The position numbers and the translations under genes are program-made. Of a DNA stretch of 64,000 bases, positions 9,376 through 64,000 are shown piece after piece. A model generated the notes under the pieces. The model saw only the letters and a program-made list of their open reading frames with translations. It did not search any database and was not told the origin of the DNA. How positions within the stretch are numbered: the first letter of the stretch is position 1; every line of letters starts with the position of its first letter. The DNA is taken from positions 24,549 to 88,548 of the forward strand of contig DATIMA010000172.1 of assembly GCA_035475915.1 (NCBI GenBank), given 5' to 3'. Source of the stretch: Bryobacteraceae bacterium (GTDB taxonomy: Bacteria; Acidobacteriota; Terriglobia; Bryobacterales; Bryobacteraceae).

Positions 9376-9399
9376 CACGAGATTGGCTATCGAGACAAG

Positions 9400-50079: not shown

Positions 50080-52221
50080 ATGAAATCGAACCAGCTTGCT
50101 TTATCCAGACGTCAGGTCTTGTCTTTAGCGGCGACCGCTTGCGCGCTGCCGATCAAGATCTCCGCAGCGGAACTCTCGGGGTTTTATTATCGTGATTATT
50201 CAAAATGCCTACCGGACCATCTCTCGGCTCTTGCCCGTACTGCATATAACAAACGCAACCGCGCTCTCGGCCTTCTAACCGACGCCGAGAGCATCCACAA
50301 ACGCCAGGCCTGGGTGCGCAAGACGTTCTGGAAGTTAATCGGCGGCGAACCGGAACGGACCTCCCTGAAGCCCCGCAAGACGGGTGAGTTTGAGCGCGCC
50401 GGCTACCGGGTCGAGAAAATTGTTTACGAAAGCCGCCCCGGCCTTTTCGTTACCTCTAACCTCTACGTGCCCACAACGGGTAAGCCACCCTTTCCCGCGG
50501 TACTTTTTCAGATGGGACACTCGGACGCTGGGAAAGCCTACCCGAGCTATCAAAAATGCTGCCAAGGCCTCGCCCGGCTCGGCTATGCTGTGCTGGCGTT
50601 CGATCCCATGGGTCAGGGGGAGCGCATCGCTTACCTTGACTCATCCGGCGTCAGTACTCGCCTGCCATCAATCGACGAGGAGCATAGCTTTCCGGGCAAG
50701 CAAATGCTGCTGCTGGGCGATACGGCATCGCGGTATCAGGCGTGGGATGCCATCCGCAGCCTCGATTATCTTGCTTCGCTGCCCTTTGTTGACCCGCAGC
50801 GCTTAGCGTCGGCCGGTCAATCGGGAGGCGGCACGCTCACTATGCTGCTCGCTTGCGCCGATTCGCGGCTGGCAGCGGCGGCGGTTTGCTCCGGTAATAC
50901 GGAGAACGTTGCCTGTGCAAATTTCAATCCGCCAGGCTCCACGGACGACGCCGAGCAAGACCTGATTGGTTCCGGACCGCTTGGCTTCGATCGGTGGGAC
51001 CTGCTGTACCCGCTCGCTCCGAAGCCTCTTCTCATACAGGTAAGCGCACACGATTTCTTCGGCACATACTCTCCCCGCTATCTCAGCGATGGCCGTGAGG
51101 AATACGAGAAGCTGTTGAAGTGTTACAACGTTCTCGGCCACCCGGATCATCTTGGCTGGACCAGCACGCCGTTACCGCATTCCCTGAGTTACTCACTGCG
51201 ACTCAATATCTATAACTGGTTTGAGAAATGGCTTAAGAAATCGGACCAGATCATTAAGGATGAGCCGCCGGTAGCGCCGGAACCGGATAAAACTCTTTGG
51301 GTGGGGCCGACCGGCAACGTCGGGCGTGACTTTGCGAGCCTGCGTCCGTTCGACTTCATTAAGCGTGAAGCGGAAGCAACTCGACCCACAAAACCGGCGA
51401 AGTCCTGGACAGACGCAATCGGGTTGCGCCCTCCTGTACAGCAGTTGAAGATGCGCAAGTTGGCACACACGCCCTCCGAAGATGCCGCGATAGAAGCGAT
51501 TGAGATCCAACCGGGGCCGGAGGTTTGGGCCCCGGCGTGGCTCTTTACGCCCCAAAAAACCGATGCGAACCGGGCGGCCTTGCTGGTGCTGGATGATAGA
51601 GGCCGGAATGCAAATGCCGGTGAGAATGGCCTGTATCACCGAATCGCTCGCCGCGGACGGGTAGTCTGCGCGGCAGACATTCGCGGGATGGGAGATATGC
51701 GGCCGGAGGTCGGGCGCGGAAATCCCGGTTACACCATTTCCCACGATTCAGAAGAGGACTTCGCCTGGGCGTCGCTGATCCTCGGCGATTCACTATTGGC
51801 ACAGCGCATCGAAGACATTCTGGCGGTGGCGCAGTCGATGCGGAACGAGCCTGCTTTCGGCAACGGCCGTTTGGCGGTCGCCGCTAAAGGGCGGCTTACT
51901 ATTCCGGCGCTCTTTGCCTTCGCCGCATCTCCGGTTATCGATTCGCTATACCTGGCAGGCGGCCTGGTTTCGTATCGAAATTTGCTCGAAACCGAAAATT
52001 ACCGCGAACCACTTTCGAATTTTGCCTGGGATCTGTTCCGAGTGATCGATCTCCCGCAACTTGCCGGGCAGGCAGCGCCCCGTCGCCTTCATCTGGCAGG
52101 TACGGTGGATGCCGCCAACAACCGGATGGACCCCGCCGTGCTTCGGACTATTTATTCAGCCGGAAACACTACGATCTCGGCGGAGCCGCTCTGGGATGAA
52201 GATTCGCTGGGATCGGCGTAA
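50080..52221 (+). CDS. Tat-signal alpha/beta-hydrolase (acetyl-xylan-esterase/dienelactone-hydrolase-like), two-lobed 713-aa protein
   Basis: SRRQVLSLAATACA signal. Nucleophile elbow GQSGGG, and an N-terminal AXE1-like region (YRVEKIVYESRPGLFVTSNLYVP). Confidence 0.55.
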   Translation: MKSNQLALSRRQVLSLAATACALPIKISAAELSGFYYRDYSKCLPDHLSALARTAYNKRNRALGLLTDAESIHKRQAWVRKTFWKLIGGEPERTSLKPRKTGEFERAGYRVEKIVYESRPGLFVTSNLYVPTTGKPPFPAVLFQMGHSDAGKAYPSYQKCCQGLARLGYAVLAFDPMGQGERIAYLDSSGVSTRLPSIDEEHSFPGKQMLLLGDTASRYQAWDAIRSLDYLASLPFVDPQRLASAGQSGGGTLTMLLACADSRLAAAAVCSGNTENVACANFNPPGSTDDAEQDLIGSGPLGFDRWDLLYPLAPKPLLIQVSAHDFFGTYSPRYLSDGREEYEKLLKCYNVLGHPDHLGWTSTPLPHSLSYSLRLNIYNWFEKWLKKSDQIIKDEPPVAPEPDKTLWVGPTGNVGRDFASLRPFDFIKREAEATRPTKPAKSWTDAIGLRPPVQQLKMRKLAHTPSEDAAIEAIEIQPGPEVWAPAWLFTPQKTDANRAALLVLDDRGRNANAGENGLYHRIARRGRVVCAADIRGMGDMRPEVGRGNPGYTISHDSEEDFAWASLILGDSLLAQRIEDILAVAQSMRNEPAFGNGRLAVAAKGRLTIPALFAFAASPVIDSLYLAGGLVSYRNLLETENYREPLSNFAWDLFRVIDLPQLAGQAAPRRLHLAGTVDAANNRMDPAVLRTIYSAGNTTISAEPLWDEDSLGSA

Positions 52222-52223
52222 GC

Positions 52224-53273
52224 ATGAAGAGAAAATCTTTCAAAGATGTAGCCCGAGTGGCAAATGTGAGTGCGGCTACCGTCTCGCGTGTAGCCAAAGG
52301 CCAAGTAAATGTAGACGGAAGCATACGCGCCCGGGTTCGAAAAGCTGCCGAGGCGCTGGGCGTGGACCTCGATCAAAAGCGCAATGATAAGGCCAATATT
52401 ATTGCATTCATGCTGGCGAATCGCGATCTTCTGCATAATTTTCAGGCGCGTATTCTGTTCGGCTCCGAGGCCTATTGCGCCTCGCAGGATCGCGAGCTTC
52501 TGTTTATGTCATTCCGGTATTCCGCCAGCACGCCGGCGAAGGAACTCCATCTCCCCAGAATCCTGACTCAGCGCGGTATCGTGCGAGCGATGATTCTTGG
52601 CGGAACCAATTCGTCAAACATGCTCCATGCATTATGGGAGCGTGAAATTCCCTTTGCGGTGCTTGGAAATAACGTGCTTGGGGATTGGAAAGGGAGCGAG
52701 TACGATGCCGTATATTCCGATGACGTGCAGGGCGCTTTCGATCTCACTGCTCAGTTGATATCGGATGGACACCGCGATATCTGGTTCATTGGCGACGTAG
52801 ACTTGCCCTGGTACGCGCGCTGCGCAAAGGGTTATAGCCAGAGCATGGCGAAAGCCGGCCTGGAGCCGCGTTTCAGTGAGATTCATTCCGACGATCACCA
52901 ATTGGGCTATCTGGCCATGCGTTCCCTGCTCTCCCGGCGGGAACCGGTAACAGCCGTGTTCGCCGGCTCAGATCAGATTGCCAGAGGCGTATATGATGCC
53001 ATACGGCAGGCCGGCCTGAGTATCCCGGACGATGTCAGCGTAGCGGGTTTCAACGACAGCGAGGGGGCACTGATGGACCCGCCCCTTACCAGCGTGCGCG
53101 AGTTTCCGGAGGAGTTGGGAAAACATCTCGCCGAGCTTGTCCTGAAACGTATTCAGACCCCCGACCGGACGCCTCAGCAACTAACGATTCCGACTCGGGT
53201 CGTGGTGCGGCAATCGACCCGGCTGGCGTTGGTTAGAAGGAAGGAGTTCGAGCCGGTATACAGAGGCATTTAG
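52224..53273 (+). CDS. LacI-family transcriptional regulator
   Basis: HTH FKDVARVANVSAATVSRVAKG followed by a sugar-binding fold. Confidence 0.85.
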   Translation: MKRKSFKDVARVANVSAATVSRVAKGQVNVDGSIRARVRKAAEALGVDLDQKRNDKANIIAFMLANRDLLHNFQARILFGSEAYCASQDRELLFMSFRYSASTPAKELHLPRILTQRGIVRAMILGGTNSSNMLHALWEREIPFAVLGNNVLGDWKGSEYDAVYSDDVQGAFDLTAQLISDGHRDIWFIGDVDLPWYARCAKGYSQSMAKAGLEPRFSEIHSDDHQLGYLAMRSLLSRREPVTAVFAGSDQIARGVYDAIRQAGLSIPDDVSVAGFNDSEGALMDPPLTSVREFPEELGKHLAELVLKRIQTPDRTPQQLTIPTRVVVRQSTRLALVRRKEFEPVYRGI

Positions 53274-53452: not shown

Positions 53453-54628
53453 ATGAAAGACTGGGCGAAGGCCAACCGCACCAGGTCAGCAGCCGTTGTG
53501 GTTCTCGTATTGGCCCTCCTGCTAGCGGATTGTGGACCTTCAAACAGCCCCAAGAGTGATCTCCCGAGTGAAGCCCAATCGGAGAATGCCAGTCTGTTTA
53601 CGGTGTCTCCCGAGCAGCTTCCGCATTTGCACGTAGAGCCGGTGCGGAGTACGACTTGGCAGACCAGTGTCACAACAACCGGCACTGTGGATTGGGATGC
53701 GGATCACACCACCCAAGCAATCACTCAGGTCAGCGGCCCCATCACTCGCATCGTGGTCGATTATGGATCACATGTGCGTGCCGGCGATCCGCTGCTCTAT
53801 GTCGCGAGCCCCGATATTACGAATGCAGTAGCGACCTACAAAAAGGCTCGGGACCAGCAGGAACTGGCGCGGAAGGTTCTCGACCGCGAAAAGGAATTGC
53901 TCGCCCACGGCGCCGCTGCCCAGAAGGATGTAGAGAGCGCGGAGGCTGCCTACAACGACGCGGCTACCGATGTCCAGAACAGCTTGCAGGCGCTAAAGAT
54001 TTTTGCGATTACTCAGCAAGAACTGGAAAATGCCGAGCGGCAATCGGTGCCGATCAGCCCGGAACTTGCGGTTCGCGCGCCAATCGGAGGCACAGTAGTG
54101 CAGAAGCTGGTTATGCCGGGTCAGTTGATTCAGGCAGGATCCACCATCTGCTTCGTACTGAGCGATACGTCAACCGTTTGGGTGCAGGGACACATTTTCG
54201 ACCGCGATCTGCAGTTGGTACACGTCGGAGATGCCGTGGAGGAAGCCAACTCCTCGCTCGACCGGACCTTCCATGGCAGAGTTTCCTATATCGGAGCCAT
54301 GGTGGATCCGAACACGCGCACAACGCCAGTTCGCATTATCACCCGAAACGTTGGGGATCTCCTGAAGAAAGACATGTATCTAGAGGCGGAAATCCATACC
54401 AAGACGGATCGAAATGTTCTCAGCGTTCCCGTTTCGTCCGTGCTGCATGATACGGAAAATGAGCCCTTTGTATACGTCGAAGTCCGGCCGCGCGAATTCG
54501 CCCGGCGATCGGTCGCGGTTGGCGCCCGGCAAAACGGCGCGGCGGAAATTCGAAGCGGTCTGAAAGAAGGCGAGAAAGTGGTTTCGGAAGGCAGCGTGTT
54601 CCTGCAGTTCGCAAACAGCTATCAATAG
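53453..54628 (+). CDS. RND efflux periplasmic adaptor (CzcB/CusB-like MFP)
   Basis: Lipoprotein-like LLADCG, a coiled-coil hairpin and beta-barrel segments (VRAPIGGTVVQKLV). Directly upstream of the CzcA-like gene. Confidence 0.8.
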   Translation: MKDWAKANRTRSAAVVVLVLALLLADCGPSNSPKSDLPSEAQSENASLFTVSPEQLPHLHVEPVRSTTWQTSVTTTGTVDWDADHTTQAITQVSGPITRIVVDYGSHVRAGDPLLYVASPDITNAVATYKKARDQQELARKVLDREKELLAHGAAAQKDVESAEAAYNDAATDVQNSLQALKIFAITQQELENAERQSVPISPELAVRAPIGGTVVQKLVMPGQLIQAGSTICFVLSDTSTVWVQGHIFDRDLQLVHVGDAVEEANSSLDRTFHGRVSYIGAMVDPNTRTTPVRIITRNVGDLLKKDMYLEAEIHTKTDRNVLSVPVSSVLHDTENEPFVYVEVRPREFARRSVAVGARQNGAAEIRSGLKEGEKVVSEGSVFLQFANSYQ

Positions 54629-54639
54629 GCTCCTCCGGA

Positions 54640-57600
54640 ATGATTTCACGCCTGGTCTCGTTCGCCCTCTCACAGCGCTTCCTGATCGTAATCGCCTCGC
54701 TCGCATTGATGGTCTGGGGAGGAATCGCGTTCCAGCGCTTACCTATCGATGCGTATCCCGATCTTTCCCCGCCCCACGTTGAAATCATCACTCAATGGCC
54801 CGGCCACGCGGCGGAGGAGGTTGAGCGGCTAATCACGATTCCCATTGAAATCGAGATGAACGGCATTCCGCGCTTGGAATCGCTGCGCTCGATTTCGTTG
54901 TACGGCCTCTCTTCCGTTCAGATGAATTTTGATTACGGCGCCGATCCTTACTTCGTCAGGGAGCAGGCGTTCGAACGAGTGGCTAACGCCGCCATGCCAC
55001 AAGGCGTCGCGCCCAGCCTTTCTCCGCTTTACAGCCCCAGTGGTCTGATTTATCGCTACGTTCTCCAAAGCCCCGATCGATCACCACGAGAGCTAAAAAC
55101 CATCCAGGATTGGTTGTTGCAACGCAGCTACCGTTCCATTCCCGGTGTGGCCGACGATTCTGGTTTTGGCGGAACAACCATGCAGTACCAGGTGCTGCTC
55201 GATCCAAACAAACTCCTCACCTACGGCATTTCTGTCGCGCAAGTGCAGCAGCAGCTTAGCGCAAACAATGCCAACGCGGGCGGCGGTTTCTACTCACAGG
55301 GCGGCCAGATCTATTACATCCGCGGACTTGGATTAGTCACAAATACAGCCGATATAGGCAATGTCGTCCTGGCAATGCACAACGGCATCCCCGTTTACGT
55401 GCGTGATGTCGCGAAAGTGCAGATCGGTCACGCCGTACGGCTCGGACAGTTTGGATACATGCGCCAGGAGGAGGCCGTGGAGGGCGTCATCCTGATGCGC
55501 GTTGGAGAGCAGGCGCAGGTAATCCTGAAGCGTGTGGAAGAGAAGACGAATGAACTGAACCGGCGCGTATTGCCGCGGGACGTCAAAGTAGTTCCCTACT
55601 ACGACCGCAGCTATTTGATTGAGGAGACCACCCGCACCGTGGAGCGGAATCTGCTGCGCGGCATGATTCTGGTGCTGGTGATTCTCGGTTTGATGCTCTT
55701 CAGCGTACGCACCGCGCTCATCGTCGCGGTGACCATTCCGTTTTCGTTGCTGTTTGCCTTCATCTGCCTCGACCGAAGCCATATTCCGGCCAATCTTCTA
55801 TCGATCGGGGCAATCGACTTCGGAATCATCGTTGATGGCGCTGTAGTCATGGTCGAAAACATTTTCCGCGAACTGGCGGCACGGCACGGCCAGAGCTACA
55901 ACCTGCTGGATGTCATCCGCGGCGCGGCGCGCGACGTCGAGCGGCCCATTTTTTATGCTATCGCGGTAATTATCGCCGGATATCTTCCCATCTATGTGCT
56001 GACCGGTCCTTCAGGGCGCCTCTTCCGGCCGATGGCTGACACCATGTGTTTCGCGCTGGTCGGCTCGCTGCTCTGTGCTCTGACGCTGCTGCCGGTGCTC
56101 TGCGCGTATTTCATGCGCAAACACGTTCGCGAGCCTCAACTGAAACTCTATGACCGGCTCCGTAATTCATACGGCAGGGGTCTCGAAATCTGTTTGCGTA
56201 ATCGAATGCTGACGGTGGTCGTCTGTCTGGTGATTTTTTTGGCCTCGCTGCTGTTGATTCCGGGAATTGGCGCAGAGTTCATGCCGCATCTCGATGAAGG
56301 GGCGCTGTGGGTGCGCGCCACCACGCCATATACGATCTCATTCGAGGAAGCCTCCCGCCTTTCACCTCAAATCCGCGATGTTCTGCTGAGCTTCCCCCAG
56401 GTGACCACCGTTGCAAACGAATTAGGACGTCCCGACGACGGGACCGACCCAACCGGATTCTTCAACAACGAGTTTTATGTCGGGCTGCGGCCCTATGATG
56501 ACGCCTCCTGGCATCACGATATTCACACGAAACCGGAACTGATTGATGCCCTTCAGCGCAAGCTCTCTGCGTTCCCGGGCGTCATTTTCAACTACACCCA
56601 GCCCGCTGAGGATGCTGTAGACGAAGCCGAGACCGGATTGAAGAGTCTGCTGGCAGTCAAAATTTTTGGCAGCGATTTGAAGACACTGGAACAAAAGGCC
56701 GAGCAGGCGAGAGACATCCTCTCGCATGTGCGCGGCATCACTCACATCGTGATCGTCCGGGAACTGGGGCAGCCTAGCCTGCTCATCAAGCCGGATCGCG
56801 CCAAGATTGCGCGCTATGGCCTGAACGTCAGTGACGTGAATACTTTAATCGAGACTGCCCTGGGAGGCACCGCGGCAACGCAGGTCATTCAAGGGGAGGA
56901 GCAGTTCGATCTCGTAGTCCGAATGCAGGAACCTTTTCGCAGCGATGAAAACGCGATTAAGAATCTGCTGATCACCACGCCGGACGGGCAGCATCTTCCA
57001 CTCAGCCAGTTCGCTGACGTTCACATCGAAAACGGCGCATCGCTCATTTACCGTGAAGCGAACTCCAGATACATCGGAGTGCAATTCAGTGTTGATGGCC
57101 GGGACCTGGCCAGCGCCGTTGGAGAAGCGCGCAGAAAAGTGGCGCGACAGGTTAAGCTTCCAATCGGCTACTCGTTTGACTGGGGTGGCGAGTATCAAGA
57201 TTACCTGTCTTCGATGGCTCAGATGAAAGTGATCCTGCCGCTTACTGTGCTGCTGATCTTGCTGATCCTGTTCGCGCTCTATGGCAACTTGAAATTTCCT
57301 CTTATCATCTTCTTCAGCGTACTCATCACTCAGCCGGTAGGCGGATTGATCGCCCTCCGCATGACCGGGACAACCTTCAGCGTGTCGTCCATGCTGGGAT
57401 TTGTGGCGCTCATGGGCCTGGCGGTTCAGACCAGCGTGATTCTCTATTCCTTCATCAACAAGCTGAGGTTGGAAGGCAAAGATACCATGACCGCCACCCT
57501 GGAAGCTTCGGTTCTACGCCTGCGGCCGATCGCGATGACTGCGTTGGTGGCCTGTTTTGGCCTCCTACCCGCCGCAATGTCCACGGGAATCGGCAGCGAC

Positions 57601-57723
57601 TCGCAGAAGCCCTTCGCGATTGTCATCGTGGGCGGCATGATCTCACGGCTGTTTCTTTCCATTTTCCTCGCCCCTGTGCTCTATTCACTTGTGGCGCGGA
57701 AGGGAGATGTTCTGCAGGTCTGA
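54640..57723 (+). CDS. CusA/CzcA-family heavy-metal RND efflux pump
   Basis: 1027 aa with 12 TM helices and two large periplasmic loops. Family-typical N-terminus (FALSQRFLIVIASLALMVWGGIAFQRLPIDAYPD), and AIDFGIIVDGAVVMVEN in TM4. Confidence 0.85.
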   Translation: MISRLVSFALSQRFLIVIASLALMVWGGIAFQRLPIDAYPDLSPPHVEIITQWPGHAAEEVERLITIPIEIEMNGIPRLESLRSISLYGLSSVQMNFDYGADPYFVREQAFERVANAAMPQGVAPSLSPLYSPSGLIYRYVLQSPDRSPRELKTIQDWLLQRSYRSIPGVADDSGFGGTTMQYQVLLDPNKLLTYGISVAQVQQQLSANNANAGGGFYSQGGQIYYIRGLGLVTNTADIGNVVLAMHNGIPVYVRDVAKVQIGHAVRLGQFGYMRQEEAVEGVILMRVGEQAQVILKRVEEKTNELNRRVLPRDVKVVPYYDRSYLIEETTRTVERNLLRGMILVLVILGLMLFSVRTALIVAVTIPFSLLFAFICLDRSHIPANLLSIGAIDFGIIVDGAVVMVENIFRELAARHGQSYNLLDVIRGAARDVERPIFYAIAVIIAGYLPIYVLTGPSGRLFRPMADTMCFALVGSLLCALTLLPVLCAYFMRKHVREPQLKLYDRLRNSYGRGLEICLRNRMLTVVVCLVIFLASLLLIPGIGAEFMPHLDEGALWVRATTPYTISFEEASRLSPQIRDVLLSFPQVTTVANELGRPDDGTDPTGFFNNEFYVGLRPYDDASWHHDIHTKPELIDALQRKLSAFPGVIFNYTQPAEDAVDEAETGLKSLLAVKIFGSDLKTLEQKAEQARDILSHVRGITHIVIVRELGQPSLLIKPDRAKIARYGLNVSDVNTLIETALGGTAATQVIQGEEQFDLVVRMQEPFRSDENAIKNLLITTPDGQHLPLSQFADVHIENGASLIYREANSRYIGVQFSVDGRDLASAVGEARRKVARQVKLPIGYSFDWGGEYQDYLSSMAQMKVILPLTVLLILLILFALYGNLKFPLIIFFSVLITQPVGGLIALRMTGTTFSVSSMLGFVALMGLAVQTSVILYSFINKLRLEGKDTMTATLEASVLRLRPIAMTALVACFGLLPAAMSTGIGSDSQKPFAIVIVGGMISRLFLSIFLAPVLYSLVARKGDVLQV

Positions 57724-57736
57724 CCGGAGCCGCTTC

Positions 57737-59005
57737 TCAGCGGATTACTTCGCGTCCAACAGCAAAATTCACTTGATTGGCCGCTGAGAAGTATGCGCCC
57801 ACAAGGTTCACATAGCTAAGTTGCGTATCGCGATACGCCTTTTGTGCATCCAGGAAGTCGAGCAGCGACGCGCCCCCATGTAGATACGCAAAAGACACGG
57901 AAGATCGGACATCTTGCGCTTCTTTCAGGTACTTCGCCTTGTATGGCTTCAGCAGATCTAGCGTGCTTTCGAGAGTCGCGTAGGCAGAGTCGACATCATG
58001 GAGCGCCGCCAATTCGGATGCATCGAGTAATTGCTGGTTCCGCCCGATATCGAGCAGGGTATGCTGCTTCTCGCCCTGATTCCGATCAAAGATGCGCAGC
58101 GGGATACTGACACTCAAGCCTACGTACGTGTTCAGTGGAGGAGGCTGGTGCGATGCATCGACACTGAATGTCGGGTCTGTCGAACCGTTCGCAATTGCAA
58201 GCTGGTGATCGGTTCTTGCCTTTTCGAGCGACTGCTCCGCTTCCTTCAGATCCGGGCGGCTGTTTATAGCCAAAGTTCGGAGATCCGCGAGCGTCGTCAC
58301 TGGTTCCTCGAAATCGAAAGGCTCCGACACGTCGAATTGTTCCACCGGAGTCGAGTCTCGCAGCAACGCGATCAGATCGATCTTTGCGGTCCGCAAATTG
58401 ACTTGCGCAGTTTCCAGATCAGATTCGAATTGGACGCGCTGCAGGTCTATCCGCTGGAAATCGACTTGCGAAATATCGCCGGACTTGAGCCGTTCCCGGC
58501 CGATCGCAATCTCTTTATCGTAGTAATCGAGATTTTCCCGCGCCACCTGCCGTACGGCCTTGGCCAGCAGCACGCGCACGAAGGCGTCCCGTAAGGTGAA
58601 CATCAGGTTTCGTTCCAGATCCGATTGCGCCGATATGGAAATTGCAGTCGCTTTCTTCGCGCTCGCCAGCCGCAGTTCGCGCTTGTGGTCCCGCTCGTGC
58701 AGGTAAGCTACACTGCCGAACAAATAGGACTGGGCGATCGGCCGATATGGATTCGTGGAAAACGGCGTGAACTGGTCCCACCCAACGGTCAGGTCGGGAT
58801 TTGGCCGGAGATTCGCGGTAATCTCGTCGGCGCGTGATTCGTCGATGGTGACTTGCCCCGCTAATAGAGTCGGGTTACTCGCCCTGAATTTGTCTCGCGT
58901 CTCTTGCCAGGTGAGTGCATGCTGTGCAAGCGCCATCTGCGCCAGGCAAGGGACTGCTGCAAGTTGCAGGCACGAAAGACCCAAACGGCGCGCATAACAA
59001 TTCAT
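57737..59005 (-). CDS. TolC-family outer-membrane efflux protein (CzcC-like)
   Basis: Signal peptide and duplicated alpha-helical/beta-barrel repeats typical of OMFs. Convergent with the pump genes. Confidence 0.75.
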   Translation of the reverse strand: MNCYARRLGLSCLQLAAVPCLAQMALAQHALTWQETRDKFRASNPTLLAGQVTIDESRADEITANLRPNPDLTVGWDQFTPFSTNPYRPIAQSYLFGSVAYLHERDHKRELRLASAKKATAISISAQSDLERNLMFTLRDAFVRVLLAKAVRQVARENLDYYDKEIAIGRERLKSGDISQVDFQRIDLQRVQFESDLETAQVNLRTAKIDLIALLRDSTPVEQFDVSEPFDFEEPVTTLADLRTLAINSRPDLKEAEQSLEKARTDHQLAIANGSTDPTFSVDASHQPPPLNTYVGLSVSIPLRIFDRNQGEKQHTLLDIGRNQQLLDASELAALHDVDSAYATLESTLDLLKPYKAKYLKEAQDVRSSVSFAYLHGGASLLDFLDAQKAYRDTQLSYVNLVGAYFSAANQVNFAVGREVIR

Positions 59006-59101
59006 CGAAAATCGGGTTCACTCTAAAAGCGTGTCCCCTCATTTTTTCACACCTCGAAAGCGAACACGCTTTGTAGGAACGAAGTTGCGGCGTAATGGGC
59101 G

Positions 59102-60523
59102 TCAGACTTCTTCCGGCACTACAAAAGGAGCGCGATACCCGCGATCTCCATCGCGAAGCAGCAGGGAAGCCTCTTCATCTCCGATAACCTCCTGCGTCTC
59201 GGGGTTGAAGTGAAGTGTTCTGCCTAAGCGGTACGATGCATTTGCCAGGTGTACCATTGCCGTTGACATGTGCCCTTCCTCAATGGGTGCATTGAGGTCC
59301 GCTTTGTTCCTGCTGGCGACGCAATCGATAAAGTTTTGAAAGTGCGCGCGTTCGCTGCCGCCGTGAACGGCAGGCTGCACCTCCTGATCCCTGCCCAGCG
59401 TCACGACATACGTACAGGCATCTTCGTCGCCGGTAGCCAAATATCCGTTGGAGCCGTAGAAGATGTCGCCGACTGTGTTGTGACTGCCCGCATTGGGACC
59501 CAGTTTAGGTTGTCCGGGGGCTCGCTTGGGCGGAGGCGTCCCGAGTTCCGGCGTTCCGATTCCCGCTTCGTGATTCGTGATCCAATGCCTGACTTCAAAA
59601 GTGATCATCTTGCGCTTCCCATCCGGGAGATCGAATTCAAAAGCGCAGTTAAGATCGTTCGGCGTCTCCTGGTCGTCATCAAACATGAAATGGCCGCCGA
59701 TGGCACTCACCTTATTTGGAAAGCCTACGCCCATTCCCCAGCGCGCCATGTCCACCTGATGAACCCCCTGGTTCCCGATGTCACCATTGCCGTAATACCA
59801 GAACCAGTGCCAGTTGTAGTGAAAGCGGTTTTGCGTGAAAGCGTGCTGCGGAGCCGGACCGGTCCACAAGTCGTAATCAACCCCGGCAGGGACCTCCGAA
59901 ACGGGCTTGCGGCCAATCGTGTCGCGCCACTTGTAACAGAGCCCGCGCGCCATGTAGGTATCGCCGACTATGCCATCGTGAAGCTTTTGGACCGCCTCGC
60001 GCGCAGCCGTGGCCGACCGGATCTGGGTTCCATGCTGCACGATGCGGTTATAGCGTTGCGACGCCTTGACCAACTGCTTTCCTTCCCACAGATTGTGAGA
60101 GCAGGGCTTCTCCACATAGACATCCTTGCCGGCCTGACACCCCCAAATTGCCATCAGAGAATGCCAGTGGTTCGGAGTCGCGATTGATATCGCGTCGATT
60201 GACTTGTCCTCCAGCAGTTTTCGAATGTCAACATAAGTGACGGGCTTAGGCAGTCCCATCTTGTCCATCTGCGCCAGCCGCTGGCGAAGGACGTTTTCGT
60301 CAATGTCGCAGAGTGCCGCAATTTGCGCATTCTTAATCTGCGAGTAGTTGTGAAGGTGATCCCGCCCTCTTCCGTGCAGGCCGCAGATGGCGACTCGCAC
60401 CCGGTCGTTTGCCCCGAAGACCCGCTCCGGGTGGGCCAAGAACGTTATGCCTCCCATCGCTGCCAGGCCCGCTGTGCTGCTGCCGAGGAAGTCTCGACGG
60501 TTGATCTCTTTTGAAGCCGCCAT
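59102..60523 (-). CDS. Tat-exported Gfo/Idh/MocA-family oxidoreductase
   Basis: Tat motif NRRDFLGSSTAGLAAMGG, Rossmann VRVAICGLHGRG, and EKP motif VYVEKPCSHN. Confidence 0.85.
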   Translation of the reverse strand: MAASKEINRRDFLGSSTAGLAAMGGITFLAHPERVFGANDRVRVAICGLHGRGRDHLHNYSQIKNAQIAALCDIDENVLRQRLAQMDKMGLPKPVTYVDIRKLLEDKSIDAISIATPNHWHSLMAIWGCQAGKDVYVEKPCSHNLWEGKQLVKASQRYNRIVQHGTQIRSATAAREAVQKLHDGIVGDTYMARGLCYKWRDTIGRKPVSEVPAGVDYDLWTGPAPQHAFTQNRFHYNWHWFWYYGNGDIGNQGVHQVDMARWGMGVGFPNKVSAIGGHFMFDDDQETPNDLNCAFEFDLPDGKRKMITFEVRHWITNHEAGIGTPELGTPPPKRAPGQPKLGPNAGSHNTVGDIFYGSNGYLATGDEDACTYVVTLGRDQEVQPAVHGGSERAHFQNFIDCVASRNKADLNAPIEEGHMSTAMVHLANASYRLGRTLHFNPETQEVIGDEEASLLLRDGDRGYRAPFVVPEEV

Positions 60524-60534
60524 TCCAATTCTCC

Positions 60535-61470
60535 TTAGGTCAGATACTTTAAACTCTCTTGAACCAGCTTCTGCGTCCCTTGGAGCGGGTCGCCCGAGCC
60601 GGTGTCATATTCCATTGAAAAGTAGCCTCGATACCCGCTGGCCTTTGCGATACTGAACATCCGTTTGAGGTCGACCGAGTAGAGCTTACCTTCCGATCTC
60701 ACGCTGTCCTTTACATGGACCATGCTGTAGGCGTACTTGAACATCGCGGTAACTGCTCTTTCGTTGTACGCGGCATCGTGCCCTTCGAGCGAGTTGCCAA
60801 AATCCGGTAAGGCGCGCAGATAAGGGCTATTTACCCGCCGAATAACATCGACCAGAAAGAACGGGTCTTCCGCAACCGGATTATCATTTTCCAGATTCAC
60901 TATAACGTTGCGCTTTGAACCGTAGTCCGCCAGTTGCCCAAGGCTTTCCGCAGCCAACCCGGCATCGGGCTTCACGTCTCGATGTCCCGAAACGTGCTGG
61001 CGTACGCTGGGCGATTCGACAATGACCGCTATATCGATCCATTTCCGCCCATACTCCACGGCTGCTTGACGTTTAGACGCGTCAGGATCATAAAAGCTCC
61101 CGCCCGAGAGGCCCAAATCGACCATATGAGAACCGGCTTTCTCTACGGCCTCCCGGAATTCGTCGAGGTATGCCTGATCGGTCGAACGAAAATGACTGCT
61201 CAGAGGATTGATGTTGTAGACCCCGAATCTCTTCGCGACGAAGGCTGGAAAGTCCTTCAGGTCCATAGCCTGCTTGTGTGGATCGTAGCCACGGTTGGTT
61301 GGACTCTGAATGTACGCTCGAAATGGATAGGATGTGACCGCCAGCCGGGCACGTGGATCTGTCGGAAATTGAAGATCCGGATGAGACGAGTTTTGACCTG
61401 CGCGAAGGAGCGGGGCGCAGGCCGCAAGCGCTGGCACGGTCTTCAGAAGACAACGGCGAGTTTGAACCAA
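60535..61470 (-). CDS. Tat-signal xylose-isomerase-like TIM-barrel protein
   Basis: TTG start giving (M)VQTRRCLLKTVPALAACAPL. The TIM-barrel pattern includes NLEND and YAYSMVHVKD...GYRGYFSMEYD. Confidence 0.7.
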   Translation of the reverse strand: MVQTRRCLLKTVPALAACAPLLRAGQNSSHPDLQFPTDPRARLAVTSYPFRAYIQSPTNRGYDPHKQAMDLKDFPAFVAKRFGVYNINPLSSHFRSTDQAYLDEFREAVEKAGSHMVDLGLSGGSFYDPDASKRQAAVEYGRKWIDIAVIVESPSVRQHVSGHRDVKPDAGLAAESLGQLADYGSKRNVIVNLENDNPVAEDPFFLVDVIRRVNSPYLRALPDFGNSLEGHDAAYNERAVTAMFKYAYSMVHVKDSVRSEGKLYSVDLKRMFSIAKASGYRGYFSMEYDTGSGDPLQGTQKLVQESLKYLT

Positions 61471-61488
61471 GATTCACCTCAGTCAATC

Positions 61489-64000
61489 ATGAACGTTTCA
61501 CGCTGTCAAGAAATATATCTCATCTTCGGTAAAGATTTTCCAACGACTCCTGTTGAGCCGCCTGGCAAACGCGCCCGGCCCGTATCGGGATATCCTAATG
61601 GCTTCGTGAGCACCAAGGGACAACTCGATCTGGTCGAGACAACATTTGAAACCGCAAGGCCGCCAAATCCTCTCTTCTGCCACCAGGAATTCCTCGAAAA
61701 GCTGAGCGAGCATGGCCGGGATTCCATTGGAAAGAGAGCCGCTTTCTTACTTCAGAGGCTCTCGTTCGATTCGCAGCGGGTGCACTATAAAACAACCCAG
61801 GGACTCAATCGAGGCTGGCGTCGCTCGCGGCTTGGCGGCAACCACGGAAGCCATTTCTATGCCTGGTGGGCTCCCAAAAACGCGCTTCCCCTAAAGGAGT
61901 CGGGCCAGTTCTCGGATGTGCCGGATGGCTCGCTTATCTTGCGCGATATCCGTCACCATGATGATCACACGCCGCTCTCGCCGCAATCCTTCGACATGAA
62001 TTACATGCCGGTAACCGTGCACGATCTCCGGCGCGAGGAATACGCTCCGCTCCCTTGGACGCAGCCACAGATCAGGTTCGCCGCAGCCCGGCAGCCCGTG
62101 CGGCTTCTGAAGGGGCACCCGGGATCAGGAAAGACAACTGCGCTATTGCACGCCGCGGATTCATCCGCCGCCGAACGGACGCTGTACATCACCTATTCGC
62201 GAAATTTAGCTGCGCTCGCCCGGGACTACTTCGATCGTTTTTGCTCGTCTCAAAAACGGTTTCATGTCATCACGTTCCCGGAGTTGGTCCGGCAAGTGCT
62301 TGGGTTGGATGCCCCGGTAGTGCCCGAAAGTGAAACCAGGCAGCGCTTTCTGCGCGATCTGTCGCCATTTTCAAGGTCTTTGGGAGCTTGGGCCAACAGC
62401 CAGCGGGCTCTCTATGACGAACTCTATGCCCATCTGGCCGGCGATGCCCTTCCAATCTCCATCGGCCGGTTCACCGCTTCGAAGCAGCCCCGAGTGTCCG
62501 AAAAAGCGTATCGGGAGCGGCGGACACGATATCTGGGCCAGGGACCTACTGCCTCCGCACTTGAAGCAGCAGTTCGCCTGGAAAAGCTCGATTCAAAGTC
62601 GCTCGCCGAGCGCTATTTCCCGGAACTGGCGCTCGCCTGGCGCGCGGTAGAGCGGTTGCATGCCCCGGGCGATGCCGGCACAAAGCCGAATTTCGATCCG
62701 GCGTTGCTTGATTTTGATTGCATCGCGGTGGATGAATGTCAGGATCTTACACCCCTTGAGGCATTCTTTATCGTCGAGCTGGCATCGTCCATCAATCACC
62801 GCCGCCGGATGGCCGTACCGCTGCTGTTGTCGGGCGATGAAGCACAGACGGTGCGCCCCACCGACTTTGAATGGGGCTGGTTGAACGACCTGCTGCATTC
62901 GCAAATAGGCACACCCTCTGAGCACAAGCTTACGTCCAATTTGCGCAGCCCTCACCGTATCGCGGAACTTGTGAACCGTGTGTGGGATCTCTACTCACAT
63001 ATTCAAAAGCAGGATCGCCCCAGCGGAACCGGGTATGCCGAAATCGAAGACGACGCAACCGACCAGATTTTATATTGCAGCGCCAATCCCGGACCGGAAT
63101 TAGACCAGCTTCTGATTTCGCTCGCGGGCCGGGAGGGTCTGGCCCTCATCACGCTCGAAGATGCGGTTCCCGCCTATGTTCCGGAGGCGGCCCGGAGCGG
63201 AGTGTTCACCGTGTCCGAAGCCAAGGGACTCGACTTCAACTCCGTATGCGTGCTCGACGCGGGCCGGAACCTGGAGCGGATTGTTCATGACGATGGCCGC
63301 TTGCGTGCCGACCACGACATCGAGGGCTTAAGGAGACGGCTGGCGATCGATCAGCTTCGCGTCGCCCTGAGCCGTCCGACCGAACGCCTGTTCTGGCTAG
63401 ACGTTAATCCGACTGATCAAATGATTCGTCAGAGCATCGGATTTCTAAACGGCAGAGATGCCGTAGCAGGAGTGGCTGCATGCGTCCCTGCGGCATTGCT
63501 GACAACGCTCGATGAGGACGATCTCGATCCGGAAGAGCGCGTTCAGCGCTGCCGTGCCGATGCATTGCAATTCCTAGACATTAAACCGGAAATCGCGTGG
63601 TCGCGGGCGCAGCAGGCGATCACGCTCTTGGGCCGCCCCGGGTCACTGGCCGCTGTGACAGATGAAGCGGCCCGGAATGCTGCCTATCTGACCCTGGCCC
63701 AGGTGTGTTTCATGCTCGGGCTGCGTAATGCGCGCCTGACAGCCGAACTGGGCAGACCCGATCTGTTTCACGAGGCATATCGCGCAGCACTAAACGCCAG
63801 CCGTTACGGATTGGCCGCCATACTCGAGGCCGTCGGGCGGGTTCACCGCGCGACTATCCAAAACCGGCTCCAGGCATTGGTCGAACTAACCCAAATTCTT
63901 CCGTCGCGCAAAGCCGAACTCGAACCGTGGCTGCTGGTCGAGTTCGGAGCAAAGTCGAAATTCTGGGTTGAAGAGTTGGAGGCGGCCTTTTTCAACAGTC
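61489..64000 (+). CDS. SF1 (UvrD/RecD-like) P-loop helicase with RelE/ParE-like N-terminal module and helical C-terminal extension; 3' end outside window; NOT in the supplied ORF track
   Basis: Hand translation gives 837 codons with no stop from the ATG at 61489 to the window end. Motifs occur in canonical SF1 order: Walker A GHPGSGKTT (62113-62139), DExx CIAVDECQDL (62719-62748), SGDEAQTV, SNLRSPHRI, TVSEAKGLDFNSVCV, LRVALSRPTERLFWL. An alternative start is GTG at 61606. Confidence 0.8.
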   Translation, partial: MNVSRCQEIYLIFGKDFPTTPVEPPGKRARPVSGYPNGFVSTKGQLDLVETTFETARPPNPLFCHQEFLEKLSEHGRDSIGKRAAFLLQRLSFDSQRVHYKTTQGLNRGWRRSRLGGNHGSHFYAWWAPKNALPLKESGQFSDVPDGSLILRDIRHHDDHTPLSPQSFDMNYMPVTVHDLRREEYAPLPWTQPQIRFAAARQPVRLLKGHPGSGKTTALLHAADSSAAERTLYITYSRNLAALARDYFDRFCSSQKRFHVITFPELVRQVLGLDAPVVPESETRQRFLRDLSPFSRSLGAWANSQRALYDELYAHLAGDALPISIGRFTASKQPRVSEKAYRERRTRYLGQGPTASALEAAVRLEKLDSKSLAERYFPELALAWRAVERLHAPGDAGTKPNFDPALLDFDCIAVDECQDLTPLEAFFIVELASSINHRRRMAVPLLLSGDEAQTVRPTDFEWGWLNDLLHSQIGTPSEHKLTSNLRSPHRIAELVNRVWDLYSHIQKQDRPSGTGYAEIEDDATDQILYCSANPGPELDQLLISLAGREGLALITLEDAVPAYVPEAARSGVFTVSEAKGLDFNSVCVLDAGRNLERIVHDDGRLRADHDIEGLRRRLAIDQLRVALSRPTERLFWLDVNPTDQMIRQSIGFLNGRDAVAGVAACVPAALLTTLDEDDLDPEERVQRCRADALQFLDIKPEIAWSRAQQAITLLGRPGSLAAVTDEAARNAAYLTLAQVCFMLGLRNARLTAELGRPDLFHEAYRAALNASRYGLAAILEAVGRVHRATIQNRLQALVELTQILPSRKAELEPWLLVEFGAKSKFWVEELEAAFFNS

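Follow-up and report, generated by a model that had tools for sequence, protein, structure and literature searches.

A widespread, undescribed bacterial protein family combining a RelE-toxin-like domain, a UvrD-type motor and TPR-like repeats

Introduction

For proteins in which a RelE-like domain is fused to a superfamily 1 (SF1) helicase, ArmD and CnuH were the sole precedents that we found in the literature on such architectures. ArmD, a component of the ARMADA type II system of E. coli (WP_000218176/7), joins a RelE-like domain to a GajB-like UvrD helicase and is needed for phage defence. Its Walker A and Walker B residues, K266 and D454, were mutated in the ARMADA study, and it acts only together with ArmA, ArmB and ArmC, with which it forms a fixed four-gene operon in mobile defence islands (10.1101/2025.09.15.676423). 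CnuH, a component of CoCoNuT systems of types II and III-A, is an SF1 helicase with an internal RelE-like domain, termed ‘RNase toxin-like’, which was seen by structure comparison only; the protein is predicted to act on RNA (PMC11090510). Furthermore, Cami1 illustrates that a RelE-fold domain can serve as effector within a larger protein of defence that is regulated and acts on the ribosome (PDB 8phj description).

Here, we describe a gene at the end of a 64,000-nucleotide stretch of DNA from a Bryobacteraceae bacterium (contig DATIMA010000172.1; hereafter the window), together with the family to which its product belongs. This family is undescribed yet widespread, and combines a RelE-toxin-like domain with a UvrD-type motor and TPR-like repeats. 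Its closest precedent is ArmD, and the protein discussed here lies outside the ArmD family.

Results

The gene, its reading frame and its start

The first-pass annotation of the window had described a forward frame that is fully open from 61489 to 64000 (837 codons), took it for a genuine long gene that extends past the window's end, and explained its absence from the list of open reading frames (ORFs) as an artefact of a frame without a stop inside the window. All three points proved correct. The frame 1 translation of this segment contains no stop in 837 codons, the other five frames contain 19–29 stops each, and the chance of so long an open run, computed on base composition, is P ~4e-13. 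The list is silent on this frame because the lister reports just those ORFs that close inside its source. The sequence beyond 64000 could be obtained from a near-identical Logan contig (L001), which matches the window from 59036 to 64000 with 99.5% DNA identity, reaches 2,690 nt further, and supplies both the end of the gene, at a stop 569 nt past the end of the window, and the next genes. This contig and the full-length protein P0001 were the source of the complete gene (DNA identity 99.5%). A pseudogene or a chance ORF is ruled out by conservation and by the P value given above.

The annotated start is a different matter: the frame is indeed open from ATG 61489, but the start should be shifted to 61606. 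Counted from ATG 61489, the ORF comprises 1,026 codons and leaves a gap of just 18 bp to the divergent upstream ORF. Homologues begin two to four residues ahead of a conserved KGQL, and in the nearest other species (L003), the equivalent of 61489–61605 contains in-frame stops as well as non-triplet, frame-breaking indels. We therefore place the start at GTG 61606, which is most likely the true one by sequence comparison and would yield a product of ~987 aa. The start column is kept as GTG or ATG in six of the seven aligned loci. A scan of the leader for a promoter and a terminator found neither. The features of the gene are collected in Table 1.

Table 1. Features of the gene within the window (positions in window coordinates)
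Feature	Position	Strand	Basis or remark
In-frame leader of the longest ORF	61489..61605	+	Most likely untranslated 5' region, not coding
Coding sequence, 5' 2,395 nt (RelE-fold / SF1A helicase / TPR-like)	61606..64000	+	569 nt more beyond the window
RelE/ParE-fold N-terminal domain (predicted)	61666..61974	+	Residues 60-162 (P0001 numbering); AF2 model and Foldseek
Linker with Q-motif-like PWTQPQ (62053-62070), ahead of Walker A	61975..62088	+	hhalign and N-domain alignment
Divergent UvrD-like SF1A helicase/ATPase core	62089..63438	+	Motifs and hhalign
Walker A	62113-62139	+	Motif location
Motif Ia	62182-62199	+	Motif location
Motif II	62725-62748	+	Motif location
Motif III	62830-62853	+	Motif location
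Motif IV	62938-62961	+	Motif location
Motif V	63208-63237	+	Motif location
Motif VI	63355-63393	+	Motif location
TPR-like alpha-solenoid, first half	63451..64000	+	Residues ~655-990; rest and tail beyond the window

A predicted RelE/ParE toxin fold at the N-terminus

About 200 residues at the N-terminus had been set apart in the first-pass annotation as lying outside the helicase. This is the case, and structure prediction combined with a Foldseek search assigns them a fold that the earlier reading had missed. The AF2 model of residues 45–205 (pLDDT 90.2, pTM 0.81) has the β-α-α-β-β-β arrangement of the RelE/ParE toxin fold, and the first 46 Foldseek matches in the PDB are toxins of the RelE/ParE superfamily, save two short cupin alignments (37 columns). 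These toxin matches reach probabilities of up to 1.00 and target-normalised TM scores of 0.58–0.76. They include YoeB, YafQ, RelE, ParE and Cami1, the last as the ribosome-bound defence RNase of the Cami1–70S complex (8phj description), and the top scores belong to YoeB, YafQ and RelE (0.72–0.76), compared with 0.65 for ParE2. At the sequence level, no likeness to any RelE-family protein was detected with Pfam, PDB profile searches or hhalign: Pfam returned nothing consistent for 44 N-domain sequences, the family profiles found no match for the domain among PDB sequences, and no signal emerged when hhalign compared the N-domain profile with approximate sequences of RelE, YoeB and YafQ from E. 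coli.

The N-domain is the best-conserved module of the protein, with a mean identity of 0.77 within its clade and 0.38 in the broad family. K101, G109, W110, R112, Y124 and H157 are invariant across the family, and R152, R155 and D158 nearly so. In the AF2 model, K101, R112, Y124, H157, R152, R155 and D158 are found on the short strand, on the two long strands and at the end of the last strand. In RelE, YoeB and YafQ, it is these strand elements that bear the catalytic residues, and we infer from the model that the conserved basic, histidine and tyrosine residues sit on strands equivalent to the catalytic ones of the RelE family. In the following, we refer to the N-domain as a putative RNase.

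A divergent UvrD-like helicase core

The central part of the protein had been described as an SF1 motor core with flanking domains, based on six quoted SF1 motifs in order. Each of these motifs is found at its expected place, and both the motifs and hhalign identify the core as UvrD-like SF1A. The ordered set comprises motifs Q, I, Ia, II, III, IV, V and VI with UvrD-type signatures, namely GDxxQ, N-x-R-S/T, KGL-E/D-F and an arginine in motif VI. At the beginning of the helicase match, hhalign sets the family consensus ‘PWT..Q’ opposite ‘FLHPSQ’ in ArmD, and the glutamine of PWT..Q is nearly invariant in the N-domain alignment. Since the helicase motifs are invariant across the family, the ATPase is likely active. 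The mean identity of the core is 0.72 within the clade and 0.34 in the broad family.

Against the ArmD family, hhalign aligns the core motif by motif over 385 columns (probability 97.9, E 3e-13). In the PDB profile search, the core matches FBH1, UvrD1 and PcrA alone, with FBH1 also aligning in its motifs and with weak matches for UvrD1 and PcrA (E 0.05–0.25); a GajB match, which would have pointed to a specific affinity, is absent from this search. Likewise, scans of the whole protein with Pfam, NCBIfam and PADLOC yielded no model over threshold. Sub-threshold matches concern the P-loop or the region of motifs II–III, to which the best-scoring PADLOC stretches are also confined: Pfam AAA_19 reaches 22.1 bits where 25.1 are required and UvrD-helicase 13 bits where 23 are required, UvrD_C has no match, and NCBIfam offers nothing beyond a RecB-like model at E 0.22. 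The motif assignments are hence upheld by the alignment with the ArmD family, but the Pfam, NCBIfam and PADLOC models stay below threshold. Its sequence places the protein on a divergent branch of the UvrD-like SF1A superfamily, outside any named family.

Several more specific assignments were considered and rejected. As the first-pass annotation had maintained, the protein is not a typical housekeeping helicase: it is not claimed by the models for UvrD, PcrA, Rep, HelD or RecD2, with no match at the equivalog level and no conserved neighbourhood. It is not a STAND NTPase either, as the nSTAND_NTPase5 match is confined to the P-loop and, with 19.9 bits, stays below the cut-off of 34, the protein having the full SF1 motif set instead. 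The PADLOC models for GajB match at E 0.002–0.02 with partial best-scoring stretches, and there is no OLD-type ATPase/TOPRIM protein among the neighbours. For Nhi and AbiO, the best-scoring PADLOC stretches fall on residues 405–524 (E 5e-6 and 8e-6), and the N-domain of the present protein has the predicted RelE fold; since no Pfam nuclease domain was detected, we find no nuclease domain of the Nhi/AbiO type.

A TPR-like C-terminal domain and a basic tail

The helical C-terminal region, which had been noted to continue past the window, is a TPR-like solenoid. The full-length AF2 model (30 close homologues) was of poor overall quality (pLDDT 62); it was used for this domain alone and is all-helical there, with block-mean pLDDT values of ~76–93 for residues 730–950. 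Foldseek matches the domain to the TPR domains of LGN, LapB, RapI and OGT, and its profile matches the TPR regions of IFT172/IFT144. Its mean identity is 0.67 within the clade and 0.22 in the broad family. In Bryobacterales only, it is followed by a basic tail rich in K, R, P and A that usually ends in PYF.

Distribution of the family

The family comprises 1,429 clusters at 50% identity, is spread patchily over at least six phyla, and is labelled ‘hypothetical protein’ almost everywhere. We found the gene in 192 GTDB species representatives, of which the best 80 are all Acidobacteriota and mostly Bryobacterales, and found no family members in viral contigs or GenBank phages. Nearly every full-length representative that we examined has both the N-domain and the helicase core, whereas the C-terminal module differs between clades, being TPR-like, a combination of FGE-sulfatase and canonical TPR arrays, or DUF7662. 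Purifying selection acts on each of the three domains.

Genomic neighbourhood

In the window, the gene is accompanied by genes for an RND efflux pump, an outer-membrane efflux protein, a GFO/IDH/MocA oxidoreductase and a TIM-barrel isomerase, with ~135 bp between the gene and the divergent TIM-barrel gene upstream. On L001, a gene for a pyridine-nucleotide disulfide oxidoreductase comes next, along with one for a radical-SAM/DUF3641 protein; the downstream neighbour is already a different one in the nearest other species. A fixed core-genome neighbourhood, which the first-pass annotation had listed among the signs of a housekeeping helicase, is absent: across 77 related loci, no neighbour recurs, and synteny is seen between close relatives. 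Clustering of the neighbours (~900 ORFs from 82 loci, with an ORF caller floor of 90 aa) yielded no recurrent family among these 77 loci; their flanks contain no recurrent methylase or helicase family, and no antitoxin gene was found beside the family members. When the 142 proteins directly beside the gene were scanned with PADLOC and Pfam, no family was matched by more than three of them, no defence family recurred, and IF3 occurred twice.

Within the Bryobacterales clade, the surrounding genes serve metabolism, transport and translation, and defence genes are absent from the vicinity; close relatives share the synteny, and the gene diverges at about the rate of its neighbours. It thus behaves as a stable chromosomal gene. 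Distant members are found on plasmids, where they adjoin a CARF protein or DUF1156–DUF499 and toxin–antitoxin genes, or beside an integrase and transposases, and some of them adjoin other defence-type helicases and ATPases.

Discussion

What could such a protein do? It looks like a single-protein device for conflict or RNA surveillance, not like a part of a multi-gene system. Our tentative proposal is an autonomous sensor-motor-RNase, that is, a stand-alone conflict-type protein of ~987 aa which is kept stably in Bryobacterales. Its TPR-like domain would bind a ligand, a protein; its SF1A motor would bind to or translocate on nucleic acid, with ATP driving a conformational switch; and this switch would free or position the RelE-like domain, which would cleave mRNA as an endoribonuclease, probably at the ribosome, and thereby shut down translation. 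RelE, YoeB, YafQ and Cami1 are ribosome-linked mRNA endoribonucleases. The ribosome or mRNA target is read from the fold alone, as UvrD-like motors usually have DNA as their substrate.

The conflict reading builds on the putative RelE-type RNase and its precedents in ArmD and CnuH, on the plasmid, mobile and defence contexts of distant members, on the patchy spread, and on the gene standing alone. The C-terminal modules, which vary between clades, follow the pattern of immune proteins composed of effector, NTPase and sensor. Most likely, the family would have originated in a conflict role, directed against phages or mobile elements in the manner of abortive infection, and in the Bryobacterales lineage a conflict protein may have turned into a stably kept chromosomal gene. 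Here, the gene looks ordinary among its chromosomal neighbours and the putative sensor domain is still 67% conserved within the clade, both counterpoints to the conflict reading, as is the lack of members in the viral and phage collections; defence genes usually turn over faster.

This stability would also suit a housekeeping role in RNA surveillance or ribosome rescue, which we consider rather unlikely. The RelE-like domain would then cleave mRNA on stalled or collided ribosomes, the motor would strip or thread the mRNA, and the TPR-like domain and the tail would dock on the ribosome or on RNA, so that the protein would be a bacterial analogue of the helicase-plus-endonuclease pairs in quality control. 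The gene is syntenic in close relatives of the Bryobacterales and as conserved as the ordinary genes around it, all three domains are under purifying selection, and N-domain and core form an obligate unit rather than carrying a swappable effector; the RelE fold is known to act on the ribosome (Cami1–70S, RelE, YoeB), and the lineage-specific K/R-rich tail is of a kind typical of nucleic-acid binders. However, such a role is difficult to reconcile with the patchiness across phyla and the plasmid, mobile or defence-like locations elsewhere, with C-terminal domains that vary as in immune sensors, with the lack of any tie to translation genes (IF3 adjoins in 2/142), and with a motor that is UvrD-like, from a DNA-helicase lineage, and not Upf1-like. 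Restricted to Bryobacterales, the protein could be a domesticated conflict protein that now serves as a non-immune, ribosome-associated helicase-endonuclease, its RelE fold cutting the A-site mRNA of stalled ribosomes, and its motor, TPR-like domain and tail clearing the message. This we regard as improbable; if true, it would reveal a hitherto unknown pathway of mRNA surveillance or ribosome rescue in bacteria.

Alternatively, the lineage of the motor may be taken at face value. In an accessory helicase of DNA metabolism, the RelE/ParE fold would be a non-catalytic module for protein interactions, for example in a ParE-like binding of gyrase or some other enzyme of DNA, and the TPR-like domain would recruit partners at forks or repair sites. 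The matches of the core (FBH1, UvrD1, PcrA and the GajB-like ArmD) are in line with a UvrD-like SF1A DNA helicase, ParE2 is among the structural matches of the N-domain, the basic tail could bind DNA, and the gene is chromosomally stable. Yet the top structural matches are the RNase members of the fold rather than ParE, the strongest conservation concerns K, R, H and Y residues of the toxin-like domain, beyond what a docking surface usually needs, none of the 77 loci shows a tie to repair or replication genes, and the housekeeping helicase families do not claim the protein; we hence find this role doubtful.

Finally, the claim of the first-pass annotation that the gene is one part of an undescribed, Gabija-like or Nhi-like multi-gene defence system with partners past 64000 found no support and has become highly improbable, since weak PADLOC matches to AbiO, Nhi, DRT helicase and GajB models and other defence-type genes near some distant homologues are outweighed by the oxidoreductase and radical-SAM genes downstream on the 99.5%-identical contig, the change of downstream neighbour in the nearest other species, the lack of any recurring neighbour (77 loci) or defence family (142 flanking proteins), and the absence of both an OLD-family GajA-type nuclease gene and an Nhi nuclease domain.

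This is a large family that is invisible to Pfam, NCBIfam and PADLOC, and with a family profile, thousands of proteins from soil metagenomes would become recognisable by name. Its best-conserved part is a predicted translation-targeting toxin fold in permanent fusion with an ATP motor and a putative sensor made of repeats, and free of an antitoxin.

Comparison with known systems

At the level of fold and superfamily, the protein shares with ArmD the order of its first domains, RelE-like and then UvrD-family SF1A helicase. By hhalign, the two helicase cores are homologous, and Walker A and B align with K266 and D454 of ArmD. In a relaxed-gap alignment of the N-domains, R112, Y124 and H157–D158 of the family stand opposite the invariant R62, Y67 and H88–D89 of ArmD, a lead without statistical support, and as a further lead, a [KR]HDD motif follows the last strand in both N-domains. 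As hhalign of the N-domain with that of ArmD was not significant, with either the single sequence or the family, we do not claim a common origin for the two RelE-like domains. ArmD is shorter (~705 aa), has no TPR-like C-terminal domain and is recognised by Pfam UvrD-helicase and UvrD_C, with its relatives called ‘SF1 helicase/RelE’ by JGI, whereas the family described here stays below the Pfam threshold. Moreover, unlike in ARMADA, there is no armA (SNF2-like), armB (PglX-like methylase) or armC (YprA-like) beside the gene, which stands alone. CnuH differs in being UPF1-like, of the SF1B branch, and in its extra OB-fold and coiled-coil modules, none of which is seen in the present protein.

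The predicted fold of the N-domain is that of RelE, YoeB, YafQ, HigB and the CARF-RelE effector Cami1. Unlike type II toxins, however, the domain is fused into a protein of ~987 aa and has an oxidoreductase gene downstream in place of an antitoxin. The ATPase and TPR-like domains fused to it would have to provide its control. With GajB, Nhi and AbiO, the protein has a UvrD-like SF1 motor in common. The analogy to GajB and Nhi that had been drawn earlier is therefore valid at the superfamily level, but does not extend to partner genes or a nuclease domain, both of which are absent, and the PADLOC matches are weak (E 5e-6 to 0.02).

In its overall design, the protein resembles the Avs/STAND sensors, with an effector at the N-terminus, a P-loop NTPase in the middle and, at the C-terminus, repeats that differ from clade to clade (Avs analogy per PMC13581612). 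Unlike in those sensors, the NTPase is an SF1 helicase with two RecA domains, and the effector is not swapped between members. If the putative RNase and sensor roles hold, the family would represent an immune or surveillance device encoded by one gene, in which a helicase takes the place of a STAND NTPase, and would extend the RelE–helicase fusions known from ArmD and CnuH to an autonomous form, whose stable presence in Bryobacterales would then amount to the long-term retention or domestication of a toxin-bearing protein.

Extent and start of the gene

From position 61489 to the end of the window, one forward frame (frame 1) reads through 837 codons with 0 stops, compared with 19-29 stops in each of the remaining five frames; given the base composition, a frame of this length would stay open by chance with a probability of about 4e-13. 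This bears out the long frame running off the window that had been described in the first-pass annotation, which was also right to regard its absence from the ORF track as an artefact, because the ORF lister leaves out any ORF that does not close within the source sequence. A protein search yielded the full-length product (P0001, whose residue numbers we use here), which has 1,026 residues counted from ATG 61489 and from which the window differs by one residue. A near-identical contig (L001; 99.5% DNA identity to window positions 59036-64000) runs on for 2,690 nt and places the end of the gene 569 nt past the window.

As judged from aligned homologues, ATG 61489 is probably not the true start, and GTG 61606 is better placed. 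Homologues start 2-4 residues ahead of a conserved KGQL, the GTG/ATG column of the aligned loci lines up with GTG 61606, and in the locus from the nearest other species (L003, 81% nucleotide identity), the equivalent of 61489-61605 contains in-frame stops and non-triplet indels. With a start at GTG 61606, the product would have ~987 residues and the gap to the divergent upstream gene would be ~135 bp, as opposed to the 18 bp between the longest-ORF starts ATG 61489 and TTG 61470. Just upstream of GTG 61606, GTATCGGGATATCCTAATGGCTTC holds the palindrome GGATATCC and is conserved in L003, though non-coding there.

Domain architecture

The protein is built of three modules: a RelE/ParE-fold N-terminal domain, which is under the strongest constraint, a UvrD-like SF1A helicase core with intact ATPase motifs, and a C-terminal module that varies between clades. 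The accessory domains proposed to flank the helicase are thus both present, here as a RelE-fold and a TPR-like domain. Mean identities fall from the N-terminal domain (0.77 in the Bryobacterales clade, 0.38 in the broad family) through the helicase (0.72 and 0.34) and the C-terminal domain (0.67 and 0.22) to the tail (0.45 in the clade).

AlphaFold, supplied with 44 diverse sequences, gave a confident model of residues 45-205 (pLDDT 90.2, pTM 0.81). The first 46 Foldseek matches of this model in the PDB are, save two short cupin alignments, RelE/ParE-superfamily toxins, including HP0894, YoeB, YafQ, ParE2, archaeal and mycobacterial RelE, HigB2 and the CARF-RelE defence effector Cami1, with probabilities up to 1.00 and target-normalised TM-scores of 0.58-0.76. 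As sequence methods detected no relationship of this domain to RelE/ParE toxins, the assignment is made at the fold level. K101, G109, W110, R112, Y124 and H157 are invariant across the broad family and R152, R155 and D158 nearly so; the conserved segments are NRGWRRSRLGG, HFYAWWAP and LRDIRHHDDH, and the conserved residues are spread over the short strand that follows helix 2, the two long strands and the end of the final strand. Equivalent fold elements carry the catalytic residues of RelE (K52, K54, R61, R81, Y87) and YoeB (E46, R65, H83, Y84), to which the conserved residues would correspond in a placement by fold element rather than by superposition.

A linker with a Q-motif-like PWTQPQ leads into the core. 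Every helicase motif of the core (I, Ia, II, III, IV, V and VI) is invariant in the family, and the core's sequence relatives in the PDB are FBH1, UvrD1 and PcrA.

Residues ~655-990 form an all-helical solenoid (block-mean pLDDT ~76-93 for 730-950, in an otherwise poor full-length model) that resembles the TPR proteins LGN, LapB, RapI and OGT. The profile of this domain also matches the TPR regions of IFT172, IFT144 and IFT122. These matches fall at positions ~780-940 of the family alignment profile (A3), with E-values of 1.7e-16 for IFT172 and 1e-5 to 1e-8 for IFT144, IFT122 and WDR19, and such eukaryotic intraflagellar-transport TPRs match much better than ordinary bacterial TPR proteins; the resemblance may reflect repeat composition only. 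A 35-residue tail rich in K, R, P and A follows in the Bryobacterales clade, but not in the wider family. Its aromatic-Phe tip, which could be a short docking motif for a partner, is PYF in 39 of the close homologues examined and mostly PHF, SPF, SYF, PLF or PFF in the others.

A large family without annotation

None of the curated models in Pfam, NCBIfam and PADLOC claims P0001. Pfam AAA_19 reaches 22.1 bits against a cut-off of 25.1 and UvrD-helicase 13 bits against 23, the NCBIfam scan returned nothing, and the PADLOC models for AbiO, Nhi and GajB match weakly (E 5e-6 to 0.02), with the best-scoring segments shown confined to either the P-loop or the region of motifs II-III. Nevertheless, the family is large: the first protein search returned 681 clusters at 90% identity, the best 120 of which are 68-100% identical and carry the source names Bryobacteraceae, Terriglobia or Acidobacteriaceae, and a profile search of 1.84 billion representatives returned 1,429 clusters at E <= 1e-3, of which 466 reach E <= 1e-30; most are matched over their full length. 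The named members belong to Acidobacteriota, Gemmatimonadota, Myxococcota and Gammaproteobacteria, and plasmid-borne ones to Rhodothermota and Cyanobacteria; the IMG/VR contigs and GenBank phages searched contain none.

In almost every full-length representative, the N-terminal domain and the core are found together. The module at the C-terminus is TPR-like here; proteins of 1,400-1,700 residues have FGE-sulfatase with canonical TPR arrays, and others have DUF7662. Such long relatives (P0151, P0318, P0327 and P0328, with 1,377-1,708 residues, and P0290, P0304 and P0305) retain the RelE-like domain and core and have C-terminal modules added or substituted: one group has an FGE-sulfatase domain together with canonical TPR arrays, the second DUF7662. 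Many other family members have an extra N-terminal extension of ~90 residues.

Genomic context

Features of the helicase gene and its surroundings (window coordinates unless stated)
Feature	Position	Strand	Remark
Esterase-like hydrolase	50080-52221		ahead of RND efflux set
LacI-family regulator	52224-53273	+	ahead of RND efflux set
HlyD-type adaptor	53453-54628	+	
AcrB-type pump	54640-57723	+	
Outer-membrane efflux protein	57737-59005	-	convergent with AcrB-type pump
GFO/IDH/MocA oxidoreductase		-	upstream
Xylose-isomerase-like TIM-barrel protein	60535-61470	-	upstream, divergent
Helicase gene, open frame	61489-64000	+	runs off window
C-terminal domain, first part	63451-64000		
Basic tail	L001:5424-5534		P0001 residues 991-1026; beyond window end
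Pyridine-nucleotide disulfide oxidoreductase	L001		downstream
Radical-SAM/DUF3641 protein	L001		downstream

The RND efflux set (53453-59005) is an ordinary housekeeping context. Among GTDB species representatives, 192 genomes hold a relative, and the best 80 of these are all Acidobacteriota, mostly Bryobacterales. When the ORFs of related GTDB loci were clustered, the helicase cluster had 77 members and the largest neighbour cluster 7, with no conserved neighbour position. PADLOC families match at most one each of the 142 immediately flanking proteins and Pfam families (MFS, SDR, amidohydrolases, IF3 and similar) at most three. Synteny persists among close relatives, and when these are compared in pairs, the helicase diverges to about the same degree as its neighbours, equalling or exceeding them in conservation in 7 of 11 pairs; the entire upstream block from AcrB to the helicase is common to the window and L003 (81% nucleotide identity). 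Directly 3' of the gene, this synteny is lost (L001:5564-7653 versus L003:11038 onward).

Among distant members, those on Rhodothermus marinus plasmids adjoin a CARF protein, a RecQ helicase and an AAA ATPase, and the one on a Picosynechococcus sp. PCC 7117 plasmid directly follows a DUF1156-DUF499 pair, near PIN/HicB genes. An integrase and several transposases lie beside one further member; other loci have a DUF4011/DUF3320 helicase with HNH, or SNF2/NOV_C helicases with an AAA_15 ATPase, and some have neutral surroundings. The PCC 7117 member (L089:7971-11201) is split in its annotation into two consecutive hypothetical CDS (7971-9011 and 9090-11201) and may be a frameshifted or decaying copy; the other Picosynechococcus plasmids in the collection searched gave no family match.

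Possible functions

Neither a partner gene nor an antitoxin was found, and we infer that the protein may be an autonomous sensor, motor and effector. Its TPR-like domain would bind a protein ligand, the SF1A motor would engage nucleic acid and couple ATP to a conformational change, and the RelE-like domain would then cleave RNA, most plausibly mRNA on the ribosome. That such a machine serves in biological conflict is a tentative reading, somewhat short of an even chance, suggested by the architecture, the two precedents ArmD and CnuH and the mobile or defence-like surroundings in which distant members lie. The main counter-evidence is that the clade gene is chromosomal, syntenic in close relatives and located among metabolic genes; the 67% conservation of the putative sensor domain within Bryobacterales also counts against it. 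This behaviour in the clade keeps alive a housekeeping role in RNA surveillance or ribosome rescue, which we nonetheless consider unlikely. Were the protein a domesticated ribosome-associated surveillance nuclease-helicase, the importance of the family would climb sharply. A role in DNA metabolism, with the N-terminal domain as a non-catalytic, ParE-like docking domain, appears more doubtful still. The multi-gene system with downstream partners envisaged in the first-pass annotation is essentially excluded by the neighbour counts and by the downstream genes seen in L001.

Comparison with known systems

In working mode, that is, as a regulated RelE-fold effector, the conflict-type protein outlined here would be nearest to ArmD and Cami1, while Avs-type effector-NTPase-TPR sensors are alike in logic; it is a member of none of these groups. 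ARMADA type II defence requires ArmD, in which a RelE-like domain is joined to a GajB-like helicase (10.1101/2025.09.15.676423). A second RelE-helicase precedent is CnuH of CoCoNuTs (PMC11090510). The core aligns with the ArmD family over 385 columns (probability 97.9, E 3e-13), its Walker A and B residues falling opposite K266 and D454 of ArmD, residues targeted by mutagenesis in the ARMADA work (10.1101/2025.09.15.676423). By contrast, ArmD's operon partners are absent beside the helicase gene, and the N-terminal domain profiles of the two show no significant similarity; a relaxed-gap alignment, as a lead only, pairs the invariant R, Y and H-D of one family with those of the other, and the two have a [KR]HDD motif in common. 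In E. coli, published primers for mutagenesis served to reconstruct a 48-nt probe, which finds armD in 526 of 5,426 complete genomes (15 of 533 places on plasmids), and in strain ATCC 8739 (L088:3229-5343), an IS1 transposase comes next after the gene.

Membership of the GajB, Nhi or AbiO groups, the first two of which had been named as examples in the first-pass annotation, fails on model coverage and on the absence of their partner domains. STAND membership is ruled out by the NTPase being an SF1 helicase, and a type II toxin-antitoxin system is discounted for want of an antitoxin and a free-standing toxin. RelE-helicase fusions have been recognised recently, and the helicase protein is a new variant of them that stands alone and carries a TPR-like domain.
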